A stretch of 64,000 nucleotides of DNA, taken from the NCBI GenBank assembly GCA_965217865.1, contig CBDCJO010000002.1:4640001-4704000 (forward strand), given 5' to 3'. This document shows positions 559 through 14,197 of this stretch, piece by piece; the first letter of the stretch is position 1, and each line of letters starts with the position of its first letter. The translations under genes and the position numbers were made by a program. The notes below the pieces were generated by a model that saw nothing but the letters and a program-made list of their open reading frames with translations, was not told the origin of the DNA and made no database searches. Origin of the DNA: Candidatus Latescibacterota bacterium (GTDB lineage Bacteria > Latescibacterota > UBA2968 > SICM01).

Positions 559-1083
559 ATGGGGGCGATGGTTCTGGAGCAGCGTGACTGGAATCAGCGT
601 GATTATGTGCACTTCATTGGCGTTTCGTCGAATGTGGTGATCACCATCGGGATTCCGGAAAAATATCTGGGTGTCCAGGCCAGCCAGCTCCGGGAGAAGT
701 TTTCACCCAATGTGGTGGATTACGTTTCCCTTCCCGATCGTCAGACGGTCACGGTGGAGCAGTCGCCCTCCGAGAAACTGGATCTTCACGATGTCGTGAC
801 CTGCAACAAGTGCGGGGAGAAAATCCCTTACGACGGTTATTTCCAGTACTGCGTCCGTTGTGGAGATAACCTGGATACGATCATCAGGGTCTGTCAGTCC
901 TGCAACAACAAGACGGCTTATCATCCGGCATTTCGATTCTGCCCGATCTGCGGAGGCGCTCTAATTCCCAATCTCTTCGAGGGGCCGCCGCTGACTGAGC
1001 TCGATCCCAACGGATTGATCTGGGGCGTTCCACTCAAGGATGAATCTCTGGAGGGGGAAGAGGGGGAAAGGGAGGAGCCGTAA
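559..1083 (+). CDS. Double zinc-ribbon protein; true start may be ATG 451, interrupted by an in-frame TAG at 505-507
   Basis: Four CxxC motifs (CNKC, CVRC, CQSC, CPIC) and an acidic tail; the same frame extends upstream to ATG 451, which has an AAGGA RBS. Confidence 0.7.
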   Translation: MGAMVLEQRDWNQRDYVHFIGVSSNVVITIGIPEKYLGVQASQLREKFSPNVVDYVSLPDRQTVTVEQSPSEKLDLHDVVTCNKCGEKIPYDGYFQYCVRCGDNLDTIIRVCQSCNNKTAYHPAFRFCPICGGALIPNLFEGPPLTELDPNGLIWGVPLKDESLEGEEGEREEP

Positions 1084-1193
1084 AACGGAAAGGCCTTGGA
1101 TCGGAAAAGCCGGGGTTCGTGATTCGTGGATAGGGGATCGGAAAACCCGAAATAACCTTTGACAATTTATCCAATAATTCGCATCGATCATTA

Positions 1194-1400
1194 ACGAATC
1201 ACGAATCACGAATCACGAATCACGAATCACGAATCACGAATCACGAATCACGAATCACGAATCACGAATCACGAATCACGAATCACGAATCACGAATCAC
1301 GAATCACGAATCACGAATCACGAATCACGAATCACGAATCACGAATCACGAATCACGAATCACGAATCACGAATCACGAATCACGAATCACGAATCACGA
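1194..1400. repeat. Perfect tandem heptamer array (ACGAATC)x29.6, copy 1
   Basis: Uninterrupted 7-mer repeat from 1194 to 1400, ending 6 nt from the modC stop codon. Confidence 0.98.
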
Positions 1401-1406
1401 TTTTTT

Positions 1407-2486
1407 CTATTCAACCTCCGGTCCGATGCGAATCGAATGCGTTTTGATTAAACATGATATCGTCTGGTTTACCTCCAGTCCCAGGTCCTCGATCGCCTCC
1501 GGGGTTATCTTTACCGCCAATCGTTTTCCCACATCCACGTAAATCAGCCCCCTTCCCTCCACTTTAGACACTTCCAAAACGCGTCCTTCCAGGGTATTCC
1601 GCACGCTCAACCCCGATGGTACCTCCCGTGAGAGAATGATGTCGTCCGCACGGATGCCGATGAAGATCTTACCCCCGGGTGGACGGTCGCAGTATGGGAT
1701 TTTCAGATTCTGTCCGGCGAAACGAGCGATGCTGACCCCCCCGGTCGCATCTCCGGATATGACTTCCACGGGAAGGACGTTCTCGAACCCGTGGGCTTCC
1801 ACTAAGGGCAGTATGTCCGGGTGGTGAGCGATGTCGAAGAAATCCCCGTGGGCAACCATCTTTCCCTCTTTCAGAACGATGACCTGTCCCGTCAACTCCA
1901 GGATTTCCGCTACGGAGTGGCTGACGTAGAGGACGGGAATACCCAGGTCCGACCGGATGTGGCGGAGGTAGGGTATGATGCGGTCTTTCAAACCCTGATC
2001 CAGGGAGGCCAAAGGTTCGTCCATTAACAACAGACGCGGGGAGGTCAGGAGCGCCCTGCCCATGGCGACACGCTGTCGCTCTCCCACGGAGAGGCTACCC
2101 GAACTTCTATTCAGAAGCGAGCGGAGCTGAAGCAGGTCGACGATCCGGTTGATTTCAAATCGTCGGTTGTCCGGTTTCTGGAGGTGGTATCCGTATCGGA
2201 GGTTCTTTTCGACAGTCAGGTGTGGGAAGAGGAGGTCATCCTGAAAAACATACCCGATCCCTCTTTTCTCGGGGGGAAGATCGATTCCTGATGCTGAAGA
2301 GAAGACAACGTCGTCGTCTATGCGGATTTCCCCCCAGTCCGGTCGGAGGAGTCCGGCTACCAGATCGAGGAGGGTGCTTTTTCCAGAGCCTGACGGTCCG
2401 AAAACCGCGGTCACAGGATAATGGCATACGGCGTCCACGTGGAGAGTGAAATTGGACCGATTGTGTGCCAGCCTGACAGATAGCAT
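1407..2486 (-). CDS. modC: Molybdate ABC transporter ATP-binding protein
   Basis: Walker A GPSGSGKST, LSVGERQR signature, LLMDEP, C-terminal TOBE-like region; adjacent to modB/modA. Confidence 0.93.
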   Translation of the reverse strand: MLSVRLAHNRSNFTLHVDAVCHYPVTAVFGPSGSGKSTLLDLVAGLLRPDWGEIRIDDDVVFSSASGIDLPPEKRGIGYVFQDDLLFPHLTVEKNLRYGYHLQKPDNRRFEINRIVDLLQLRSLLNRSSGSLSVGERQRVAMGRALLTSPRLLLMDEPLASLDQGLKDRIIPYLRHIRSDLGIPVLYVSHSVAEILELTGQVIVLKEGKMVAHGDFFDIAHHPDILPLVEAHGFENVLPVEVISGDATGGVSIARFAGQNLKIPYCDRPPGGKIFIGIRADDIILSREVPSGLSVRNTLEGRVLEVSKVEGRGLIYVDVGKRLAVKITPEAIEDLGLEVNQTISCLIKTHSIRIGPEVE

Positions 2487-3176: not shown

Positions 3177-3296
3177 AAAGATATTGAGAATTGAAGGTTG
3201 GAGATCGACTTCGGCCCCACCGCCTTCCCGGAATTCAGAATTTAGAATCAGGGAGTCCCTCTACTCCTTTCGACTCCGGACTCGCGACTCCGGATT

Positions 3297-4103
3297 TTAA
3301 TTCTGACTTCTGACTCCGGTATCCTGTTTTAAGAACTCAAACCCTTGCTCTTCAAAAACCTTCCCGGCCTCATCCGATTGAAGCCATTCTATCAACAGGC
3401 GGACGTTTCCTGTATTGCGGTCTTTCACGACAGCCACCGGGTAAACGATCCGGTCGTGAGATTCCGGGCCCAGGGTTGCGATCACGCTTACCTTCGAACT
3501 GATGGCCGCATCCGTGGCATAGATCAACCCCGCGGAACACTCCCCGCGCTCGACGTAAACGAGAGCTGCGCGCACGTCCAGTCCCGGGGCGATCCGTTTC
3601 GAAAGGGGACCCCACCATCCAAACCACCGAAGGGCCTGCTCGGCATAGATTCCGGCCGGAACGTGGGAGGGGTCCCCAATGGCGAGCATGCCCCGAAACG
3701 AGGCAGGAAAGTCGAATCCTTTCCGGGGAACCATCCGGAATTCCTCCCCAACAGGGGCCACGATGACCAGGCCGTTGCCGAGAAGATCGAACCGGGTTCC
3801 CTCCTCGATTCGGCCTTGAGTTTCGAGATAATCCATCCATTCCGGGCTTGCAGAAAAGTAGATGTCGGCCGGGGCCCCATTTTCGATCTGTTTGGCAAGT
3901 GTGGATGAACTGCCGAAGGCGAATTTCAGTTCGAACCCGGCCTGTGCTTCAAACGCCGGGGAGAGATCCTGGAGCACATCCGTCAGGCTTGCGGCTGCGT
4001 AAACCCGCACGGATCGGGCATCGATGTCAAGGGGGAGGATCCATTGGGAGGTGGAGAAGGAGATCAGAACGAGGGTTCGCGTGATGATGGAAAGGTGGCT
4101 CAT
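3297..4103 (-). CDS. modA: Molybdate ABC transporter substrate-binding protein
   Basis: YAAASLTD, GSSSTLAKQIENGAPAD, GDPSHVPAGIYA motifs. Confidence 0.95.
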   Translation of the reverse strand: MSHLSIITRTLVLISFSTSQWILPLDIDARSVRVYAAASLTDVLQDLSPAFEAQAGFELKFAFGSSSTLAKQIENGAPADIYFSASPEWMDYLETQGRIEEGTRFDLLGNGLVIVAPVGEEFRMVPRKGFDFPASFRGMLAIGDPSHVPAGIYAEQALRWFGWWGPLSKRIAPGLDVRAALVYVERGECSAGLIYATDAAISSKVSVIATLGPESHDRIVYPVAVVKDRNTGNVRLLIEWLQSDEAGKVFEEQGFEFLKQDTGVRSQN

Positions 4104-4151: not shown

Positions 4152-5240
4152 CTATCTCCACGGCACGCTCACGCCCAGTTCGTCCGCCAGATCGGCAAGC
4201 TTCTCCAGATGTTTTTTGTGGATGGGGATGCCCGATTCACCCCAGGCCTGCTTCTTCATCCACTCGATCTCTCCCGGGAGATAGATCCGTTCGACGCCTT
4301 CCGACCTTTTGGACTCCCGTACGGTTCGGATGGTCCGGTCCACTTCTTCGATGAATTCGTCCAGGGAGATGAAGCAAGCGATGTTGATCGCGTAGAAGAA
4401 ATGACTCGCCCTGGCCTGTCCGTGGAACTCCTTCCTGTCCCGATGGCATGTGGAAAGGCCGAAAGGGAGGATACCCCCCATCACGTCCATGATCATCGTC
4501 AGGCAATATCCCTTGACCCCTCCGAAAGGAAAAAGGATGCTCGCTTCGGCTGGGTTGTTTGTCGGGAGGGCATCCTTGTTCAGCGCCCAGTTGTCGGCCA
4601 AGGGGATCCCGTAGAGTTCCATCGTGGTAATCCGCCCCCACGCTGACACTCCGCAGGCCATGTCCAGGACGATCGCAGGCTCCTCCTTCGCGGGGATGGC
4701 ATAGGCCATCGGGTAGTTCCCCAACACACCGGAATTGCCGCCGTAGGGAGCCACCGCGGGGGTGCTGCTGGATACACAGAAACCGATCATCCCGTGTTCC
4801 AAAGTCCGCATTACAAAGTTGGACCCGGCTCCGAAGTGGCTGCTGTTCCGCACACCCACCGCGGCGATACCGGTCTGTCGGGCTTTGTCAACGGCGAGTT
4901 CCATCGCACGGGTTCCTGTCAAGTGCCCGAGCCCACTGCCCCCGTCGACCAGCGCATACGAGGGGCCTTCTTTGACGACCTGAATTTCCGGTTTTGGGTT
5001 CTTACGACCACCCTTTATTTGTGAGATATATGTGGGAAGGAGCCTGGTGCCGTGTGAGAATACCCCCCGAAGATCTGTTTCGACCTGAAGGGCTGACACG
5101 AGGCCTGCATCTTCCGGGGAAAGGCCAACCCTCAGATAGATCTCCACGGCAAGATCCCGCAACTGCTCGGCACGGACAAGCTGTTCATCGGGGCTCGGGA
5201 TTGTGCGAAAGTTCGGATCTGGTGCGGTGTAATCAATCAT
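4152..5240 (-). CDS. Ldh_2 (malate/L-sulfolactate/ureidoglycolate dehydrogenase-type) oxidoreductase
   Basis: DLRGVFSHG, VRNSSHFG, GNYPMAYAIP, LDMA, GGVKGY, IYLPGEIE; start placed at ATG 5240 because the upstream ORF extension runs through repeat DNA. Confidence 0.88.
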   Translation of the reverse strand: MIDYTAPDPNFRTIPSPDEQLVRAEQLRDLAVEIYLRVGLSPEDAGLVSALQVETDLRGVFSHGTRLLPTYISQIKGGRKNPKPEIQVVKEGPSYALVDGGSGLGHLTGTRAMELAVDKARQTGIAAVGVRNSSHFGAGSNFVMRTLEHGMIGFCVSSSTPAVAPYGGNSGVLGNYPMAYAIPAKEEPAIVLDMACGVSAWGRITTMELYGIPLADNWALNKDALPTNNPAEASILFPFGGVKGYCLTMIMDVMGGILPFGLSTCHRDRKEFHGQARASHFFYAINIACFISLDEFIEEVDRTIRTVRESKRSEGVERIYLPGEIEWMKKQAWGESGIPIHKKHLEKLADLADELGVSVPWR

Positions 5241-5413
5241 AACGTGAAAAGGAAAGGGTGAAAAAAGCCGTGGATCGTGGTTCGTGACTCGGGGATCGGA
5301 AAGGCCGTCGATCGTGGATCGTGATTCGAGGATCGAGGATAGGAAAGGCCAATGATCCGAATCCTTCAAAAAAACTTTGACTATTCGTCAAATAATTCGC
5401 ATAGGCGTCATTA

Positions 5414-5673
5414 ACGAATCACGAATCACGAATCACGAATCACGAATCACGAATCACGAATCACGAATCACGAATCACGAATCACGAATCACGAATCACG
5501 AATCACGAATCACGAATCACGAATCACGAATCACGAATCACGAATCACGAATCACGAATCACGAATCACGAATCACGAATCACGAATCACGAATCACGAA
5601 TCACGAATCACGAATCACGAATCACGAATCACGAATCACGAATCACGAATCACGAATCACGAATCACGAATCA
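5414..5673. repeat. Perfect tandem heptamer array (ACGAATC)x37, copy 2
   Basis: Uninterrupted 7-mer repeat; its end supplies the rsgA TGA stop (5671-5673, minus strand). Confidence 0.98.
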
Positions 5674-6654
5674 TGGCCTTTGCCTGATGTTCCGATAACT
5701 CGTGTGCCTGCTCTGATCAACCTGACCCGAAGACACCGCCGCCTTCACGGCACAACCCGGTTCCTCTTCGTGAACGCAGTCGCGGAACCTGCAGGATCCG
5801 ATCAGGGGCCGCATCTCCGGAAAGAGATGGTGCAACTGATTCACGTCGACGTCCCAAAGGCTCATGTCCCGGAGGCCGGGGGTATCCCCCAACAGGCTGA
5901 TCCCTCCCAGGGTGTAGAGCTCTGCGTGAGTGGTGGTGTGGCGGCCGCGACCGGTGGCCTTGTTGATGGACTTGACCCGGCGGCCCAGGCCAGGCTCCAG
6001 GGTGTTTAAGAGCGTCGTCTTACCGGTGCCGGAAGGCCCCAGGAAAACGGCGACCGTTTTCTGGACGGATGCGCGGACAGAATCCACACCGTCCCCATTC
6101 TCAGCACTGATCAGGAGGATCCGGTACCCGATCTTCTCATACAGGCCGACCAACGGAGCCGTGATGGATGGTTCTACGAGGTCGGTTTTGTTTACGCAGA
6201 TCAGGACGGGGATATCTTGAAGTTCACATATGGCCAAAAACCGATCCAGCATCTCCAGGTTCAGGTCGGGTTCCCGAATTGAGAAGACGAGTACGGCCAG
6301 GTCTACGTTTGCGATGAGGGTCTGTTCGAGGGGACGTTTTCCCGCCGCCCTCCGGGAGAACTTGTTCCGGCGGTTTACGACATGGTAGATCATCCCGGTG
6401 CCGTCACCTACATCATCGAATTTTACGAAGTCTCCCACGGCCACAGGGCTGGTTGAACGAATGCCGCGAACCGCCGTAACACGTTTGCGAATGGAGGATG
6501 TGTCCGCGGTGGAATATTCGATCACTTTTCGCAGTTTGCTGGAAACGGAACAATTGATCAGGGCGTCCCCCGAAGAAACGGTATATCGACCGAGGTGCTC
6601 CTGCATGACACGACCGATGGGATGGCCCGAAAGGGTATCGTCCGGAGTATTCAT
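5671..6654 (-). CDS. rsgA: Ribosome small subunit-dependent GTPase A
   Basis: Circularly permuted GTPase motifs NKTD, GPSGTGKTT, GRHTTT, DTPG and zinc site CRFRDCVHEEEPGC. Confidence 0.95.
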   Translation of the reverse strand: MNTPDDTLSGHPIGRVMQEHLGRYTVSSGDALINCSVSSKLRKVIEYSTADTSSIRKRVTAVRGIRSTSPVAVGDFVKFDDVGDGTGMIYHVVNRRNKFSRRAAGKRPLEQTLIANVDLAVLVFSIREPDLNLEMLDRFLAICELQDIPVLICVNKTDLVEPSITAPLVGLYEKIGYRILLISAENGDGVDSVRASVQKTVAVFLGPSGTGKTTLLNTLEPGLGRRVKSINKATGRGRHTTTHAELYTLGGISLLGDTPGLRDMSLWDVDVNQLHHLFPEMRPLIGSCRFRDCVHEEEPGCAVKAAVSSGQVDQSRHTSYRNIRQRP

Positions 6655-6854
6655 TAGAAGGGATATGCAAAATGAAAAATGCAAATTGTAAACTTCAAAT
6701 TTACCGCGCCCAGCTCCCTCAAAGTTACAAAAACCGCGGTTTCAATTTGAGATTTATAATTTGCACTGAAATACTTTTAGTTTGACTCCGGGTCTCCCAA
6801 CTCCGGGACTTGCATTTCTGGATTCGGACTCATGTCTCCTGTGTTCTGCTTTTG

Positions 6855-7940: not shown

Positions 7941-8361
7941 GGAAGAAAATGAAAAATGGAAAGTGAAAAATGTAAATTTTAATTTAGGGACTTCAATTAT
8001 CCCGGGTGAATCAAGGTAGAGGATATATCTGGTGTGGGGATTTGTCAAGGCTAATTCGATTGGCCTGTAGCGGCCCCAGGCCTCCAGCCCCTTCCTCACT
8101 TGTGTTTTCCCATAGGTGATGTTATCTTTATCCGAAATTCAAGGCCCAATTCCGAATCGATCATCAGCCAGTTGAGGTTCATTTTCGATGGCACACCAGA
8201 CAGACGTTTATAGGCGGATTCAGACCTTAATTGCACAGAGCAGTGCGTGGTTTTGGACTGGTGCGTGACCACGGAACTGGAACGCACAGGGCTTTAAGAC
8301 CACCACGTCAGCGATAAGAGCCTCTGGGGCACCTGGATTTGAGGAAACGGCAGGGAAAATA

Positions 8362-10398: not shown

Positions 10399-11801
10399 CT
10401 CAGTCACTATGTTAAAAGTAGTTGAGCCTCACTGCTTGAGAGGATATGTTTATTGGAAATCCCGTAGATTCACAATAACTCTCTCTCACAGGAGGCTCAA
10501 GATGGGAAGATATTCGAAACAGGCCTGGAAAGGCAAGTGTCTTTTTATGGTTATCGATCTTCATCGCAAAAGTTGGCACGTGACCATTCGATCCGAAGAT
10601 GGTTTGGTCCTTTTTTCCAACAACATTGGTGGCCGTTGGGAGGACCTGGAGCGATTGTTGTCCCGGTTCTCCGACGCGGGACAGATCTCGGTCGTCTACG
10701 AGGCAGGATATTTTGGGTTTTGGGTATATGATCGGCTGATCGAATATGGGGTAGATGCGCGGGTGACGCCTCCTCATTTGATTCCTCAACGCTCTGGTAG
10801 TCGGGTGAAAAATGATCGTCTGGATAGCGGAAAGTTAGCTGAGTGCCTACAGTCTGGCCAGTTAGAGGCCATATATGTTCCGACTGTGGAAGAGCGTGCG
10901 CATCGGCAAGTGTCCAGGCGTCGTCGTCAGTGCATCGGCAATCGGGTTCGGACTCAAAATCGGATCAAAGCAGAGCTTCGGGTGAATGGGATTGAATTGC
11001 CTCGAGAATCGAGTGGCAAATGGAGCCAGGTCTTTATCGATAAGTTGAGAGCCTTCAGGTTTCAGAATCGGTATCAGCAAGAATGTTTTCAGACCTTGCT
11101 GAATGAATTCGACTTCCAGTCAGAGCAGATCGAAAAGCAGACGAACCTGCTGAAGGAACTTTCAAAAAGCGATGGATATCGGGATCGCGTGGAGATCCTG
11201 ACCTCTACGCCAGGTATCGGTTGGATCAGTGCCATGGAGCTCCTGTTGGAACTGCAGGACGTCGCACGATTTCGAAAGGCTGATCAGTTGGCCGCTTATA
11301 TAGGCTTAACGCCTTCACAATATTCGAGTGGGGAAAACCTCCGGTTTGGACACATCACGCGTCAGGGCAGATCCAGCTTACGGTGCCTGTTGGTTGAGGC
11401 CGCATGGCGAGTCATCAAAAAAGATGGTGCGATGAGAGAAAAGTATGACCGGATCAAAACTCGGGCCGGATCCAAACGAGCTATTGTCGCGATTGCCAGG
11501 ATTCTAATTATTCGGCTCCGAGGGATCCTGATTCGCAAAGAGCCCTATGTGCTGGGACTGGTTTAAGCCTAACGACTGTCCGCACCCTTTTTAAACACCT
11601 CTTTCGATCCGGAGGGAGGAACGGCGTTGTCATCCTTGAAGAGCCTTAGATTACTCCGTGGCTCAGTGTGCCGAATCCTCTCCAAAATCCTCCGGATCGA
11701 TAACTTGTGGCGCTTCGTGTGACCTCGAATAGTAGGCTGGTTGGGTTTGAAAGCGGTGAGGCAACAATCTGTAGATTCCCTTTGACTTTTAACATAGTAG
11801 G
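10399..11801 (+). mobile_element. IS110-family insertion sequence, IS1111-type (outer ends approximate)
   Basis: Perfect 14-bp subterminal IRs ACTATGTTAAAAGT (10406-10419) and ACTTTTAACATAGT (11785-11798); ~220-nt non-coding region 3' of the transposase. Confidence 0.85.
10502..11566 (+). CDS. IS110-family DEDD recombinase/transposase
   Basis: IDLHRK, VYEAG, VKNDRLDS (DEDD residues); GLTPSQYSSGE serine loop; AGGAGG RBS before ATG 10502. Confidence 0.93.
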   Translation: MGRYSKQAWKGKCLFMVIDLHRKSWHVTIRSEDGLVLFSNNIGGRWEDLERLLSRFSDAGQISVVYEAGYFGFWVYDRLIEYGVDARVTPPHLIPQRSGSRVKNDRLDSGKLAECLQSGQLEAIYVPTVEERAHRQVSRRRRQCIGNRVRTQNRIKAELRVNGIELPRESSGKWSQVFIDKLRAFRFQNRYQQECFQTLLNEFDFQSEQIEKQTNLLKELSKSDGYRDRVEILTSTPGIGWISAMELLLELQDVARFRKADQLAAYIGLTPSQYSSGENLRFGHITRQGRSSLRCLLVEAAWRVIKKDGAMREKYDRIKTRAGSKRAIVAIARILIIRLRGILIRKEPYVLGLV

Positions 11802-12778: not shown

Positions 12779-14119
12779 TTGAAGGGTCTTTTGCAGTTGC
12801 TGGAAGATCGGGAGAAGATCGGCAATCCCCTGCGGGTCGGCCTGATCGGGGCGGGAAAATTCGGATCCATGTTTCTGAGCCAGGCCAGGCGGGTGCCAGG
12901 CCTTCACGTGATGGGGATCGCGGATCTTTCCCTTGAAAAAGCCCGAGAATCGCTCCTGCGGATTGGATGGCAGCAGGAACAATTTTCGGCAAAGGGCTTC
13001 GACCGGGCGCTCAAAACCGGGTCCACCTGTCTGACTGATGACAGCAGTGCCCTGATCAAGGCGGAAGGGTTGGATGTCCTGGTGGAGGCCACGGGCGACC
13101 CTGCCGCAGGAATCCGCCACGCCCTGGCGGCATTTGAATCGGGGAAGCACGTCGTCCAGGTCAGCGTTGAGGCGGACGCGCTGGCAGGATCTCTCCTTGC
13201 CCGAAAGGCTGAAGCCGCGGGCGTGGTCTACAGTATGGCCTACGGTGATCAGCCTGCCTTGATTTGCGAACTGGTCGAGTGGGCCCGCGTCAACGGTTTT
13301 GAGGTCGTGTGCGCGGGTAAGGGCACCAAGTACCTCCCGATCTACAACAGGTCAACACCCGAAAAGGTCTGGGAGCATTATGGCTTCGACAGCGAGGCTG
13401 CCGCAAAGGGGGGGTTAAACCCAAAGATGTTCAACTCGTTTCTGGACGGGACCAAGTCCGCGATTGAAATGGCCGCCGTGGCCAACGCAACGGACCTGGT
13501 TCCCCAGTCCGATGGTTTGGGCTTTCCTCCGTGCAGTGCCAAAGACCTTCCGAACGTCTGCCGGCCTGAAGCAGAAGGCGGCCGGCTTTCGCACAAAGGG
13601 ACGGTCGAGGTGGTGTCCTGCCTGGATCGGGATGGACGCCCGGTCGAACCGGACTTTCGCTGGGGGGTCTATGTGACCTTCGAAGCCCCGAGCGAATATG
13701 TCAAACGCTGCTTTGTCGAATATGGGATGAACACAGATACGACAGGACGCTATGCGGCCATGTACAGACCCTATCACATTGTGGGTCTAGAATTGACTTT
13801 CGGCATCCTTAAAGTGGGTCTACGCGGCGAGGCCACAGGTACGCCTACAGGATTCATTGCGGATGTTGTCGCCCGGGCGAAGCGGGATTTACAGGCCGGG
13901 GAGGTCCTCGACGGGGAAGGCGGGTACAGCGTTTACGGTGTGCTCGCCCGGGCCGAGGAGGCTATGAAGGTTGGAGGGCTGCCGATTGGACTCGCCCGTG
14001 GCGTGAAGTTGAAAAGGGGGATCGTGAAGGATCAGACGGTTCGCTGGTCGGACGTTGAATATGATGAGAAGGATCCCGCGGTGCGATTCCGGAAGGAGAT
14101 GGAAGGGGAAGGGAAATGA
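12779..14119 (+). CDS. Homoserine-dehydrogenase-like NAD(P)-dependent oxidoreductase with C-terminal SAF domain
   Basis: GLIGAGKFG, GDQPALI, NSFLDGTKSAIEMAAVANAT, AKRDLQAGEVLDGEGGY; TTG start after GAGAGG. Confidence 0.85.
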   Translation: MKGLLQLLEDREKIGNPLRVGLIGAGKFGSMFLSQARRVPGLHVMGIADLSLEKARESLLRIGWQQEQFSAKGFDRALKTGSTCLTDDSSALIKAEGLDVLVEATGDPAAGIRHALAAFESGKHVVQVSVEADALAGSLLARKAEAAGVVYSMAYGDQPALICELVEWARVNGFEVVCAGKGTKYLPIYNRSTPEKVWEHYGFDSEAAAKGGLNPKMFNSFLDGTKSAIEMAAVANATDLVPQSDGLGFPPCSAKDLPNVCRPEAEGGRLSHKGTVEVVSCLDRDGRPVEPDFRWGVYVTFEAPSEYVKRCFVEYGMNTDTTGRYAAMYRPYHIVGLELTFGILKVGLRGEATGTPTGFIADVVARAKRDLQAGEVLDGEGGYSVYGVLARAEEAMKVGGLPIGLARGVKLKRGIVKDQTVRWSDVEYDEKDPAVRFRKEMEGEGK

Positions 14120-14197
14120 AAAATGAAAAATAAAAAGTTCAAATTGCAAAATCTAAGGATACAGTGACACAGACGGAACCCGTGTCAGAGCTTAGAC

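Follow-up and report, generated by a model that had tools for sequence, protein, structure and literature searches.

Introduction

Inverted pairs of heptamer arrays have been described for Xanthomonas (Rehm et al., 2015, PMC4692102), and why 7-base repeats are over-represented in bacterial genomes was named as an open question in that study. The Xanthomonas GGGAATC arrays resemble the element reported here in that they are intergenic, are built from a related heptamer, often form inverted, convergent pairs near gene ends and occur on either gene strand. They differ in being G-rich quadruplex formers of mostly 4 units without a leading/lagging preference. In addition, a shared core is present here and is not described for the pairs in the accessible part of that paper, and here a single arm is pure, reaches up to 38 units and is oriented along the inferred replichore. 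The BrickBuilt MITE of Porphyromonas gingivalis (Klein et al., 2015, PMC4596501) is similar to the present element in another respect, because one lineage carries about 20 intergenic copies of it, each a leader followed by a tandem array, and because it has inverted ends and segments that resemble promoters. BrickBuilt has a 23-nt unit, a leader, a tail and small terminal inverted repeats, whereas here the unit has 7 nt, a degenerate array serves as inverted partner, a tail is missing, and a target duplication was not detected.

Three further systems share single features. The hmw (ATCTTTC)n repeat of Haemophilus influenzae (Rapun-Araiz et al., 2025, PMC12721329) also combines a perfect heptamer array of varying length with an imperfect complementary arm, but it is described as a single promoter-linked 5′-UTR locus that needs transcription and RNase III, while the present element has 31 dispersed copies in both orientations to transcription. 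The TAACTGA repeats of marine Beggiatoaceae (MacGregor, 2015, PMC4679880) are likewise abundant intergenic heptamer runs with stop codons on one strand, and many of them end just before start codons; in contrast to the arrays found here they have 2–6 units and are mostly oriented with the downstream gene, and the sections of the paper at hand describe neither a core nor an inverted arm. REPINs (Bertels and Rainey, 2011, PMC3116915) are also lineage-specific, non-coding elements with inverted arms that spread within a genome, but according to the text available each of their arms is one conserved palindrome, linked to a RAYT gene, instead of a run of heptamers. Finally, the tandem repeats of Borgs (Schoelmerich et al., 2023, PMC9879509) are, like the arrays studied here, perfect, fast-changing and A-rich with partial terminal units, and slippage has been proposed for them; as far as that text goes, they have independent origins without a shared core or unit. 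Because all Borg genes lie on one strand per replichore, replication and transcription are inseparable in that case.

A sequence-only reading of the locus had stated that no described system matches it. This was too strong, since the accessible parts of these sources already describe pairs of inverted heptamer arrays, a MITE that carries a minisatellite and a heptamer array that depends on an RNA hairpin. In the open-access literature, searched without supplements, no core-anchored, replichore-polarised heptamer element was found described, and while inverted heptamer pairs are already known from Xanthomonas, no published report of a replication polarity was found in the accessible texts.

Results

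Two copies of the element in the window

The window, i.e., the whole stretch of 64,000 nt from a Candidatus Latescibacterota genome that was analyzed, contains two copies of the element. Copy 1 starts on the plus strand with a left arm (1084–1149) of degenerate reverse-complement versions of the heptamer and purine-rich spacer words, which begins directly after the stop codon (1081–1083) of the upstream gene. It is followed by the core (1150–1193, plus strand), which contains an A-rich tract, the hexamer TTGACA at 1159–1164 (35 nt ahead of the array) and a conserved tail with TCATTA at its end, and which is common to 31 copies in the genome. The perfect array (1194–1400, plus strand) consists of 29 ACGAATC units plus 4 nt, i.e., 29.6 units. 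Its end is separated by 6 nt (1401–1406) from the stop codon (1407–1409) of modC (1407–2486, minus strand; TIGR02142 above cut-off), which belongs to the context. The same is true for the upstream gene (559–1083, plus strand), which lies outside the element and is convergent on copy 1. Its ORF encodes a Cys-rich protein of 174 aa with four CxxC pairs, and an NCBIfam scan of this ORF gave no match.

In copy 2, the left arm and a longer 5′ part of the core (5259–5369, plus strand) are located upstream of the start of a minus-strand gene for an Ldh-2-type dehydrogenase (4152–5240). The core (5370–5413, plus strand) carries TTGACT 37 nt ahead of the array, and the perfect array (5414–5673, plus strand) has 37.1 ACGAATC units. 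Its final three bases are the TGA stop codon (5671–5673) of rsgA (5671–6654, minus strand; TIGR00157 above cut-off), which is again context. The junction TCATTA/ACGAATC is identical in both copies, and the number of exact reverse-complement units in the left arm is one in copy 1 and zero in copy 2. The sequence-only reading had therefore been correct about a repeated element of the same architecture, about the common start of the perfect arrays and about the distance of 6 nt between copy 1 and the modC stop.

An Rfam scan of the window yielded only a tRNA, and the two copies were without a match at the gathering threshold. Degenerate heptamer runs of other families are present in further gaps of the window (3180–3320, 6663–6830, 7945–7976 and 14108–14145); they are among 553 such runs genome-wide. 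The window also contains a 385-aa ORF (10409–11566) with motifs suggestive of an IS110-family transposase.

A family of 31 copies with one pure arm

The assembly of the genome comprises 6.43 Mb in 2 contigs (C1 and C2) and is 96% complete with 9.3% contamination. A profile was built from 22 cores, and a search of the genome with matches taken at E ≤ 5 retrieved 32 matches, 29 of them at E < 0.001; seven of the ten matches outside the training set had E ≤ 6e-4. Each match is accompanied by a left arm or at least one unit. The 32 matches represent 31 elements because one copy is split by an IS200-like insertion. The layout of the family is a degenerate inverted arm, a core of about 45 nt and a perfect (ACGAATC)n arm with n = 1–38, so that the arms are variable-length runs of 7-nt units inverted around a spacer. 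The genome contains the junction-plus-array pattern 17 times, whereas a reversed control gave no occurrence, and the pattern is thus not due to chance. Perfect ACGAATC arrays of at least 4 units were found 21 times, 20 of them behind a core, and the family has 416 perfect units in total. The prospect that the core might occur nowhere else was not borne out, and the finding of a repeated element stands. The family is non-coding, multi-copy, dispersed and lineage-restricted, as MITE-type elements are.

The right end of the element is defined, as the array ends 3–4 nt into a unit in 24 of the 31 copies. The left end is ragged, the left arms are degenerate, and two copies are devoid of them. The median similarity of the cores is 64%. 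Two copies with identical cores have 31 versus 19 units, another identical pair has 32 versus 28 units, and two copies with cores that are 96–98% alike have 1 versus 28 units, showing that changes in array length outpace mutation of the core. The initial proposal of a dispersed element, one arm of which grows from a fixed core and remains pure, is thus borne out across the family.

One copy (C2:4522805) has an array of 17 pure ACGCACC units followed by one intermediate unit, so that the ancestral-like unit is the distal one. Its left arm does not contain a matching inverted ACGCACC unit. In the family, array length is independent of the number of exact inverted units (rho −0.05, p 0.79). Templating in cis by the left arm was rejected on these two grounds.

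Some loci deviate from the common layout. At C2:776684–776913, 37 nt of core tail plus two units are duplicated, and the distal copy alone has expanded to 18 units. At C1:339735–339818 a perfect array of 12 units has neither a core nor a left arm and begins 6 nt after a TAnnnT hexamer; a promoter test of this array gave no call (poor −35). At C2:3938473–3938537 a perfect 9-unit array of another heptamer family lies behind a degenerate run of that family and is aimed at a start codon.

Runs with a period of 7 are a general trait of the genome. The 553 runs compare with 11–129 runs for periods 5, 6 and 8–11, and in one megabase 73 runs were found in the real versus 1 in the shuffled sequence. 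Among 530 runs of other units, only 5 have at least 5 perfect units and 2 have at least 8, one of the latter being the variant array.

All array lengths were taken from one assembly, and short-read contigs cannot measure long arrays. Such contigs confirmed the flank, left arm and core of copy 1, the best run possibly being the source of the assembly. They stop 5–9 letters beyond the core, which is uninformative about array length because the core is common to many copies. For the copy at C2:783324 the single-unit state (1.4 units) was bridged letter for letter in two runs, one of which is possibly from the study that produced the assembly. In a diverged strain the sequence agrees as far as the single unit at C2:783324, and the contig breaks off 18 letters further on, as would be expected if the array were longer there. 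A strain that is about 98% alike diverges within the left arm of copy 1.

The orientation follows the inferred replication direction

The flanking contexts of the copies were derived from our own gene calling, which yielded 5700 genes and is not curated. All 31 copies are situated at gene ends. Both neighboring genes run in the direction of the array in 12 cases and against it in 10 cases, while 5 copies lie between convergent and 4 between divergent genes. The array is aimed at a downstream gene in 16 copies and against a stop codon in 15 copies, and 7 of the latter 15 have the stop codon within the array. The array length does not differ between start-facing and stop-facing copies (p 0.15). 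It had been suggested that the element forms a stem in the 3′-UTR of minus-strand mRNAs and has a processing or stability role there; with 16 arrays pointing into a gene and 15 against a stop, this cannot be a general role.

In contrast to the transcription context, the orientation relative to the GC skew is strongly biased. The ACGAATC strand is the local G-rich strand for 29 of 31 copies at ±50 kb (p 5e-7), one of which sits at a skew of 0.002, and long arrays (18/19) agree as well as short ones (11/12). Agreement amounts to 25 of 31 copies at ±150 kb and to 28 of 31 when third-position skew is used.

A dif-like site at about 5.42 Mb of C2 coincides with the skew maximum, and dnaA is located half a genome away at 2.24 Mb. 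The GC skew switches near 2.9 Mb, about 0.65 Mb from dnaA, and several skew reversals occur in C2 between 0 and 2.9 Mb. As the switch is nearer to 2.9 Mb than to dnaA, the left part of C2 looks rearranged, and the reversals look like inversions or mis-joins. A dnaA-to-dif model was used, in which the replication direction is inferred and C1 is oriented by its own skew; under this model 26 of 31 copies are leading (p 2e-4). The 5 lagging copies have 1, 1, 2, 3 and 9 units, whereas the remaining 26 have a median of about 13 (one-sided p 0.02). In the clean arm of C2 (2.95–5.42 Mb) the plus strand carries 18 of 19 elements versus 929 of 1731 genes (54%; p 2.4e-4), and when both flanking genes are opposed to the array, 9 of 10 copies are still leading. 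Taken together, the orientation of the element tracks the inferred replication direction and not transcription.

Five other heptamer families of the genome show a strong polarity by local skew, with the purine-rich strand being skew-leading in 338 of 394 runs, and a weak one under the dnaA/dif model (245/394). In tandem gaps of lagging-strand genes the count for six families was 57 of 85 when judged by skew and 50 of 133 under the model, with 95 of 553 runs unassigned.

Folding and the core

The two strands of the array differ in their predicted folding. As RNA, 30 units of the complementary strand reach −71 kcal/mol versus −11 kcal/mol for the ACGAATC strand, while as DNA the values are −12.6 and −10.5 kcal/mol, with a continuous DNA hairpin only on the complementary strand. 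For the variant unit ACGCACC the RNA asymmetry is present, and the DNA asymmetry is absent. Whole elements also fold better on the complementary strand (mean −42 versus −36 kcal/mol). For copy 1 the minus-strand fold is close to that of shuffled sequences (z −1.05), and the plus-strand fold is weaker than theirs (z +3.8). The consensus structure of the core, derived from the 15 of 31 copies that were aligned, is a single stem of 5–6 pairs between the core tail and unit 1, and no compensatory changes were detected in this stem among these copies. A structured RNA was therefore rejected as the role of the core, and the proposed long stem closing over the core is not supported by these folds. A DNA hairpin of the CTG type was likewise rejected as a full explanation, since it is too weak and polarity is seen in the short copies as well.

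In 23 of 31 copies the core contains a TTGAC-like hexamer with an upstream A tract 34–37 nt before the array, which resembles a −35 box. In this genome, 260 of 839 intergenic TTGAC sites have TAnnnT at a spacer of 17. TAnnnT at a spacer of 16–18 nt is absent from all 31 cores, and a promoter scan called none at the two copies in the window. The core was thus rejected as a sigma-70 promoter, because the −10 is absent in every copy.

Candidate enzymes and traces of insertion

As a trace of insertion, a target duplication was searched for by comparing the right-flank prefix with the left 140 nt. The mean match in 29 of 31 copies was 4.31 nt versus 4.33 nt for shuffled pairs, so that no duplication was detected.

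The genome has 19 PF01797 matches, including 13 like-scoring full copies and 5 unscanned fragments. Two of the 19 were scanned, and both failed the REP_Tyr_transpos model (37 and 29 bits versus a cut-off of 80) and passed IS200 (NF033573). Membership in the REPIN/RAYT system was rejected, since the arms are not conserved palindromic REP units and no RAYT-grade protein was among those scanned. At six inspected loci of Y1 transposases, arms of the element family were missing with the exception of one insertion into a core. In this case, an IS200-like tnpA element lies within the core of the copy at C2:5252640–5253303, behind TTCAT and without a visible duplication; three other inspected copies among the 13 like-scoring IS200-like ones likewise follow TTCAT.

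Three reverse transcriptases were found at distances of 12–49 kb from the nearest element. Two of the three were scanned, with UG21 (split) and Drt4 as best matches, and the third is Drt4-like by eye. The UG21 enzyme is split over two overlapping ORFs (L023:1012–2935), and the Drt4-like genes reside in IS-rich islands (L024; C2:814301–815323). Membership in DRT10 was rejected, because the two scanned enzymes are not UG17-class and the 17-unit array with a two-base variant breaks the rule of one template and one unit. Templating of the arrays by a reverse transcriptase was rejected as well, with no fitting enzyme among the two of three that were scanned.

Genes of the GxxExxY type are not present in this genome. 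Four genes encode four-helix-bundle proteins (TIGR02436), a family that presumably resembles the Avd protein of DGRs and the ORFs of 23S rRNA intervening sequences. All four are bracketed by inverted runs of 6–7-mers, as the core is here, but the runs are built from other units. In the relative G001 the same applies to 2 of 4 loci, the other two being uninformative, as the region taken for L241 probably misses the gene and L242 is cut by its contig end. A TIGR02436 gene between arms of the ACGAATC unit was found at none of the four loci of the genome itself and at neither of the two informative loci of G001, and no such locus lies within 18 kb of a core element. Two of the four genes are apparently broken, one by an in-frame TAG and one by a match that is split over two frames (L020, L021/L022), and their arms persist.

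It had been recommended to look for co-occurring genes of these kinds. Reverse transcriptases, four-helix-bundle loci and Y1 genes are indeed present, but no cognate enzyme was found among those tested. This survey covered TIGR02436, Y1 and reverse transcriptase genes, and an autonomous parent of another kind may exist.

Relatives and other genomes

Within the phylum, 3 of 168 genomes contain the array pattern, and all of them belong to the family of this organism. In the two family relatives, whose assemblies are fragmented, the same arms enclose different spacers, and none of the 20 loci viewed exceeds 5 perfect ACGAATC units. By eye, some arm-spacer-arm elements are apparently in frame inside histidine-kinase-like ORFs, one in this genome (L018, about 945–1056) and four in the relative G001 (L056, L057, L067, L078). 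The core tail plus array had no match in the GTDB contigs, a set from which the genome itself is possibly absent. In metagenomes 14 matches to the core were retrieved, none with two or more units and none with a BLAST match of more than 150 nt to this genome.

Arrays of five ACGAATC units alone are far more widespread, with at least 114 loci in many phyla; a strict inverted arm of the same unit is present in the available upstream DNA of only 11 of the 114 foreign arrays listed. A sigma-70-like promoter abuts 16 of the 93 foreign arrays that have enough upstream DNA. In the controls, which overlap and are not composition-matched, such a promoter was called at 20 of 558 upstream positions and in 1 of 86 cases on the opposite side. 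Four foreign loci (L137, L150, L204, L229) share a core of about 70 nt that ends with TATAAT directly before 6–23 ACGAATC units, and the first three of them are from Helicobacteraceae MAGs.

The closed genome of Thermithiobacillus tepidarius DSM 3134 contains 7 arrays. Four of them (L275, L277, L278, L279), with 8–19 units, have a shared GC-rich core behind a degenerate arm. This core is unrelated to the one described above and has no TTGAC-like hexamers. Three of the four core-bearing copies end at most 20 nt from an ATG. With dnaA at position 205, 4 of the 7 arrays are clearly leading and 2 lagging, with 1 borderline case, which does not confirm the polarity in this species.

Discussion

In the way it works, the element is comparable to the inverted heptamer pairs of Xanthomonas, and its layout is that of BrickBuilt. 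It shows no MITE-type target duplication, and its arms, the variant array and the enzymes scanned place it neither among the REPINs nor with DRT10. We consider it somewhat better than an even chance that it is a non-autonomous fold-back element, which would be placed in a fork-linked manner by an enzyme that was not found, and the distal arm of which would then be lengthened in place by slippage in steps of 7 bases.

In the placement step, new copies would be set down with a fixed polarity to the fork, probably on the single-stranded lagging-strand template. One-unit copies are polarised like long ones, and thus the step that makes copies must see the fork direction. IS200/IS605 elements act on the lagging-strand template and are sensitive to the direction of the fork. 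In the growth step, as soon as two or more pure units are present, the local unit would be its own template, and slippage would gain or lose whole units and purge variants. The pure variant array points to the local unit as its own template, which fits slippage, and the fact that it was not templated by its inverted arm argues against a shared template of a reverse transcriptase. Of the two routes of extension that had initially been considered, slippage is therefore likely, while templated iterative synthesis from a shared or a cis template is not supported, given the 17 ACGCACC units without inverted match, the missing correlation with exact inverted units and the classes of the scanned reverse transcriptases. 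In the common orientation, the hairpin-capable strand would be the nascent lagging strand, corresponding to the expansion-prone polarity of CTG/CAG repeats. For CTG/CAG tracts this polarity favors expansion in most systems, while the yeast data are mixed and one result is opposite, according to the part of the source available (PMC3310812). Gene ends would accept the element in both directions; this could be tolerated because one strand provides a TGA stop together with a 3′ tail that folds, while an unfolded leader comes from the opposite strand. Most likely the element is selfish or near-neutral filler with possible effects on the expression of neighboring genes.

Several observations speak against this explanation. 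A mobilising enzyme, a target duplication and an empty site were not found in the searches performed. The asymmetry of the DNA hairpin is small and does not extend to the variant unit, whereas that of the RNA is large. The replication direction is inferred, dnaA and the skew switch disagree, and agreement drops to 25 of 31 copies at ±150 kb. In addition, the polarity is mixed in T. tepidarius, that of the other heptamer families is weak under the dnaA/dif model, and the Xanthomonas pairs have no leading/lagging bias. The array lengths come from a single assembly with 9.3% contamination. The inverted heptamer array of H. influenzae did not vary, which its authors read as evidence against plain slippage, as far as the text available goes (PMC12721329).

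An unlikely but more far-reaching version is a transposase-free class of mobile elements that would be written at the fork with fixed polarity, possibly with the aid of a four-helix-bundle protein. A leader-like core would fix the point of unit addition, the core-proximal unit would be duplicated, and the newest unit would sweep the array; the ancestral-like unit of the variant copy is indeed the distal one. If true, this would be an undescribed enzyme-driven process of repeat writing that is active across many phyla.

The main rival of fork-linked placement and slippage is an RNA-dependent contingency locus of the hmw type, which we also regard as improbable. In this case the transcribed array would pair with the degenerate arm or with itself, and RNase III would cut the duplex, thereby tuning neighboring genes and driving the change in unit number. 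The accessible text (PMC12721329) provides a direct precedent in which a perfect heptamer array pairs with a complementary arm that is imperfect, the complementary strand folds strongly as RNA with both the normal and the variant unit, whole elements also fold better on that strand, and every copy is located at a gene end. However, long arrays are found in every transcription context, without a length difference between start- and stop-facing copies, and the orientation follows the replichore rather than the transcript. Neither covariation of the core among the aligned copies nor a minus-strand fold of copy 1 clearly better than shuffles was observed. With regard to a position in a 5′-UTR behind a promoter, 16 of 31 arrays are aimed into a gene, and the cores have no TAnnnT −10.

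It is rather doubtful that the core was copied as a promoter, one that has since weakened or is read by an alternative sigma factor, and that the array grows from the transcription start, with repeated opening and scrunching leading to out-of-register re-annealing. The distance of the TTGAC-like hexamer and A tract in 23 of 31 copies would place unit 1 at about +1, the excess of sigma-70-like promoters next to foreign arrays points in the same direction, a locus of a family relative (L071) has an 11-of-12 promoter 6 nt before its array, and segments of BrickBuilt act as promoters according to the text at hand (PMC4596501). Yet the organism uses TTGAC-17-TAnnnT, which none of the 31 cores has, the scanner was silent at both window copies, and 15 of 31 copies would fire antisense into a gene end. 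Moreover, the T. tepidarius core is GC-rich and without such hexamers, and the controls for the foreign arrays have the overlap and composition mentioned above.

Very unlikely is a telomerase-like mechanism, in which a reverse transcriptase with an RNA template would add units at the core junction, as DRT10, which makes tandem-repeat DNA (PMC12632851, accessible part), does for free DNA. The fixed start and the purity of the arrays, the occurrence of the same heptamer at the at least 114 loci of many phyla and one 11-nt unit match within 2.5 kb of the third reverse transcriptase would be in accordance with it, but a single template cannot yield a pure ACGCACC array with an intermediate last unit, and the enzymes are of the UG21 and Drt4 classes (two of three scanned, the third Drt4-like by eye) and 12–49 kb away. 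That the assembler inflated elements of truly few units is hardly credible, because, despite the at most 5 perfect units in the two fragmented relatives, lengths range from 1 to 38 within one assembly and differ by replichore side, the variant array is private, a closed genome of another phylum has 19-unit arrays, and the 1.4-unit state of C2:783324 was bridged in two runs (one maybe from the assembly's own study).

If nothing but slippage in inert filler is at work, the significance of the element is modest. However, in contrast to the described cases, this genome separates replication from transcription, since the direction of the element goes with the inferred fork and the genes across it are found in both directions. 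Natural controls are available as well, namely matched cores with 1 versus 28 units, the sweep of a mutant unit and short copies on the lagging side, which together make fork-polar insertion and orientation-dependent expansion directly testable. T. tepidarius DSM 3134, which is culturable and has a closed genome and elements of the same layout, opens these questions to bench work.
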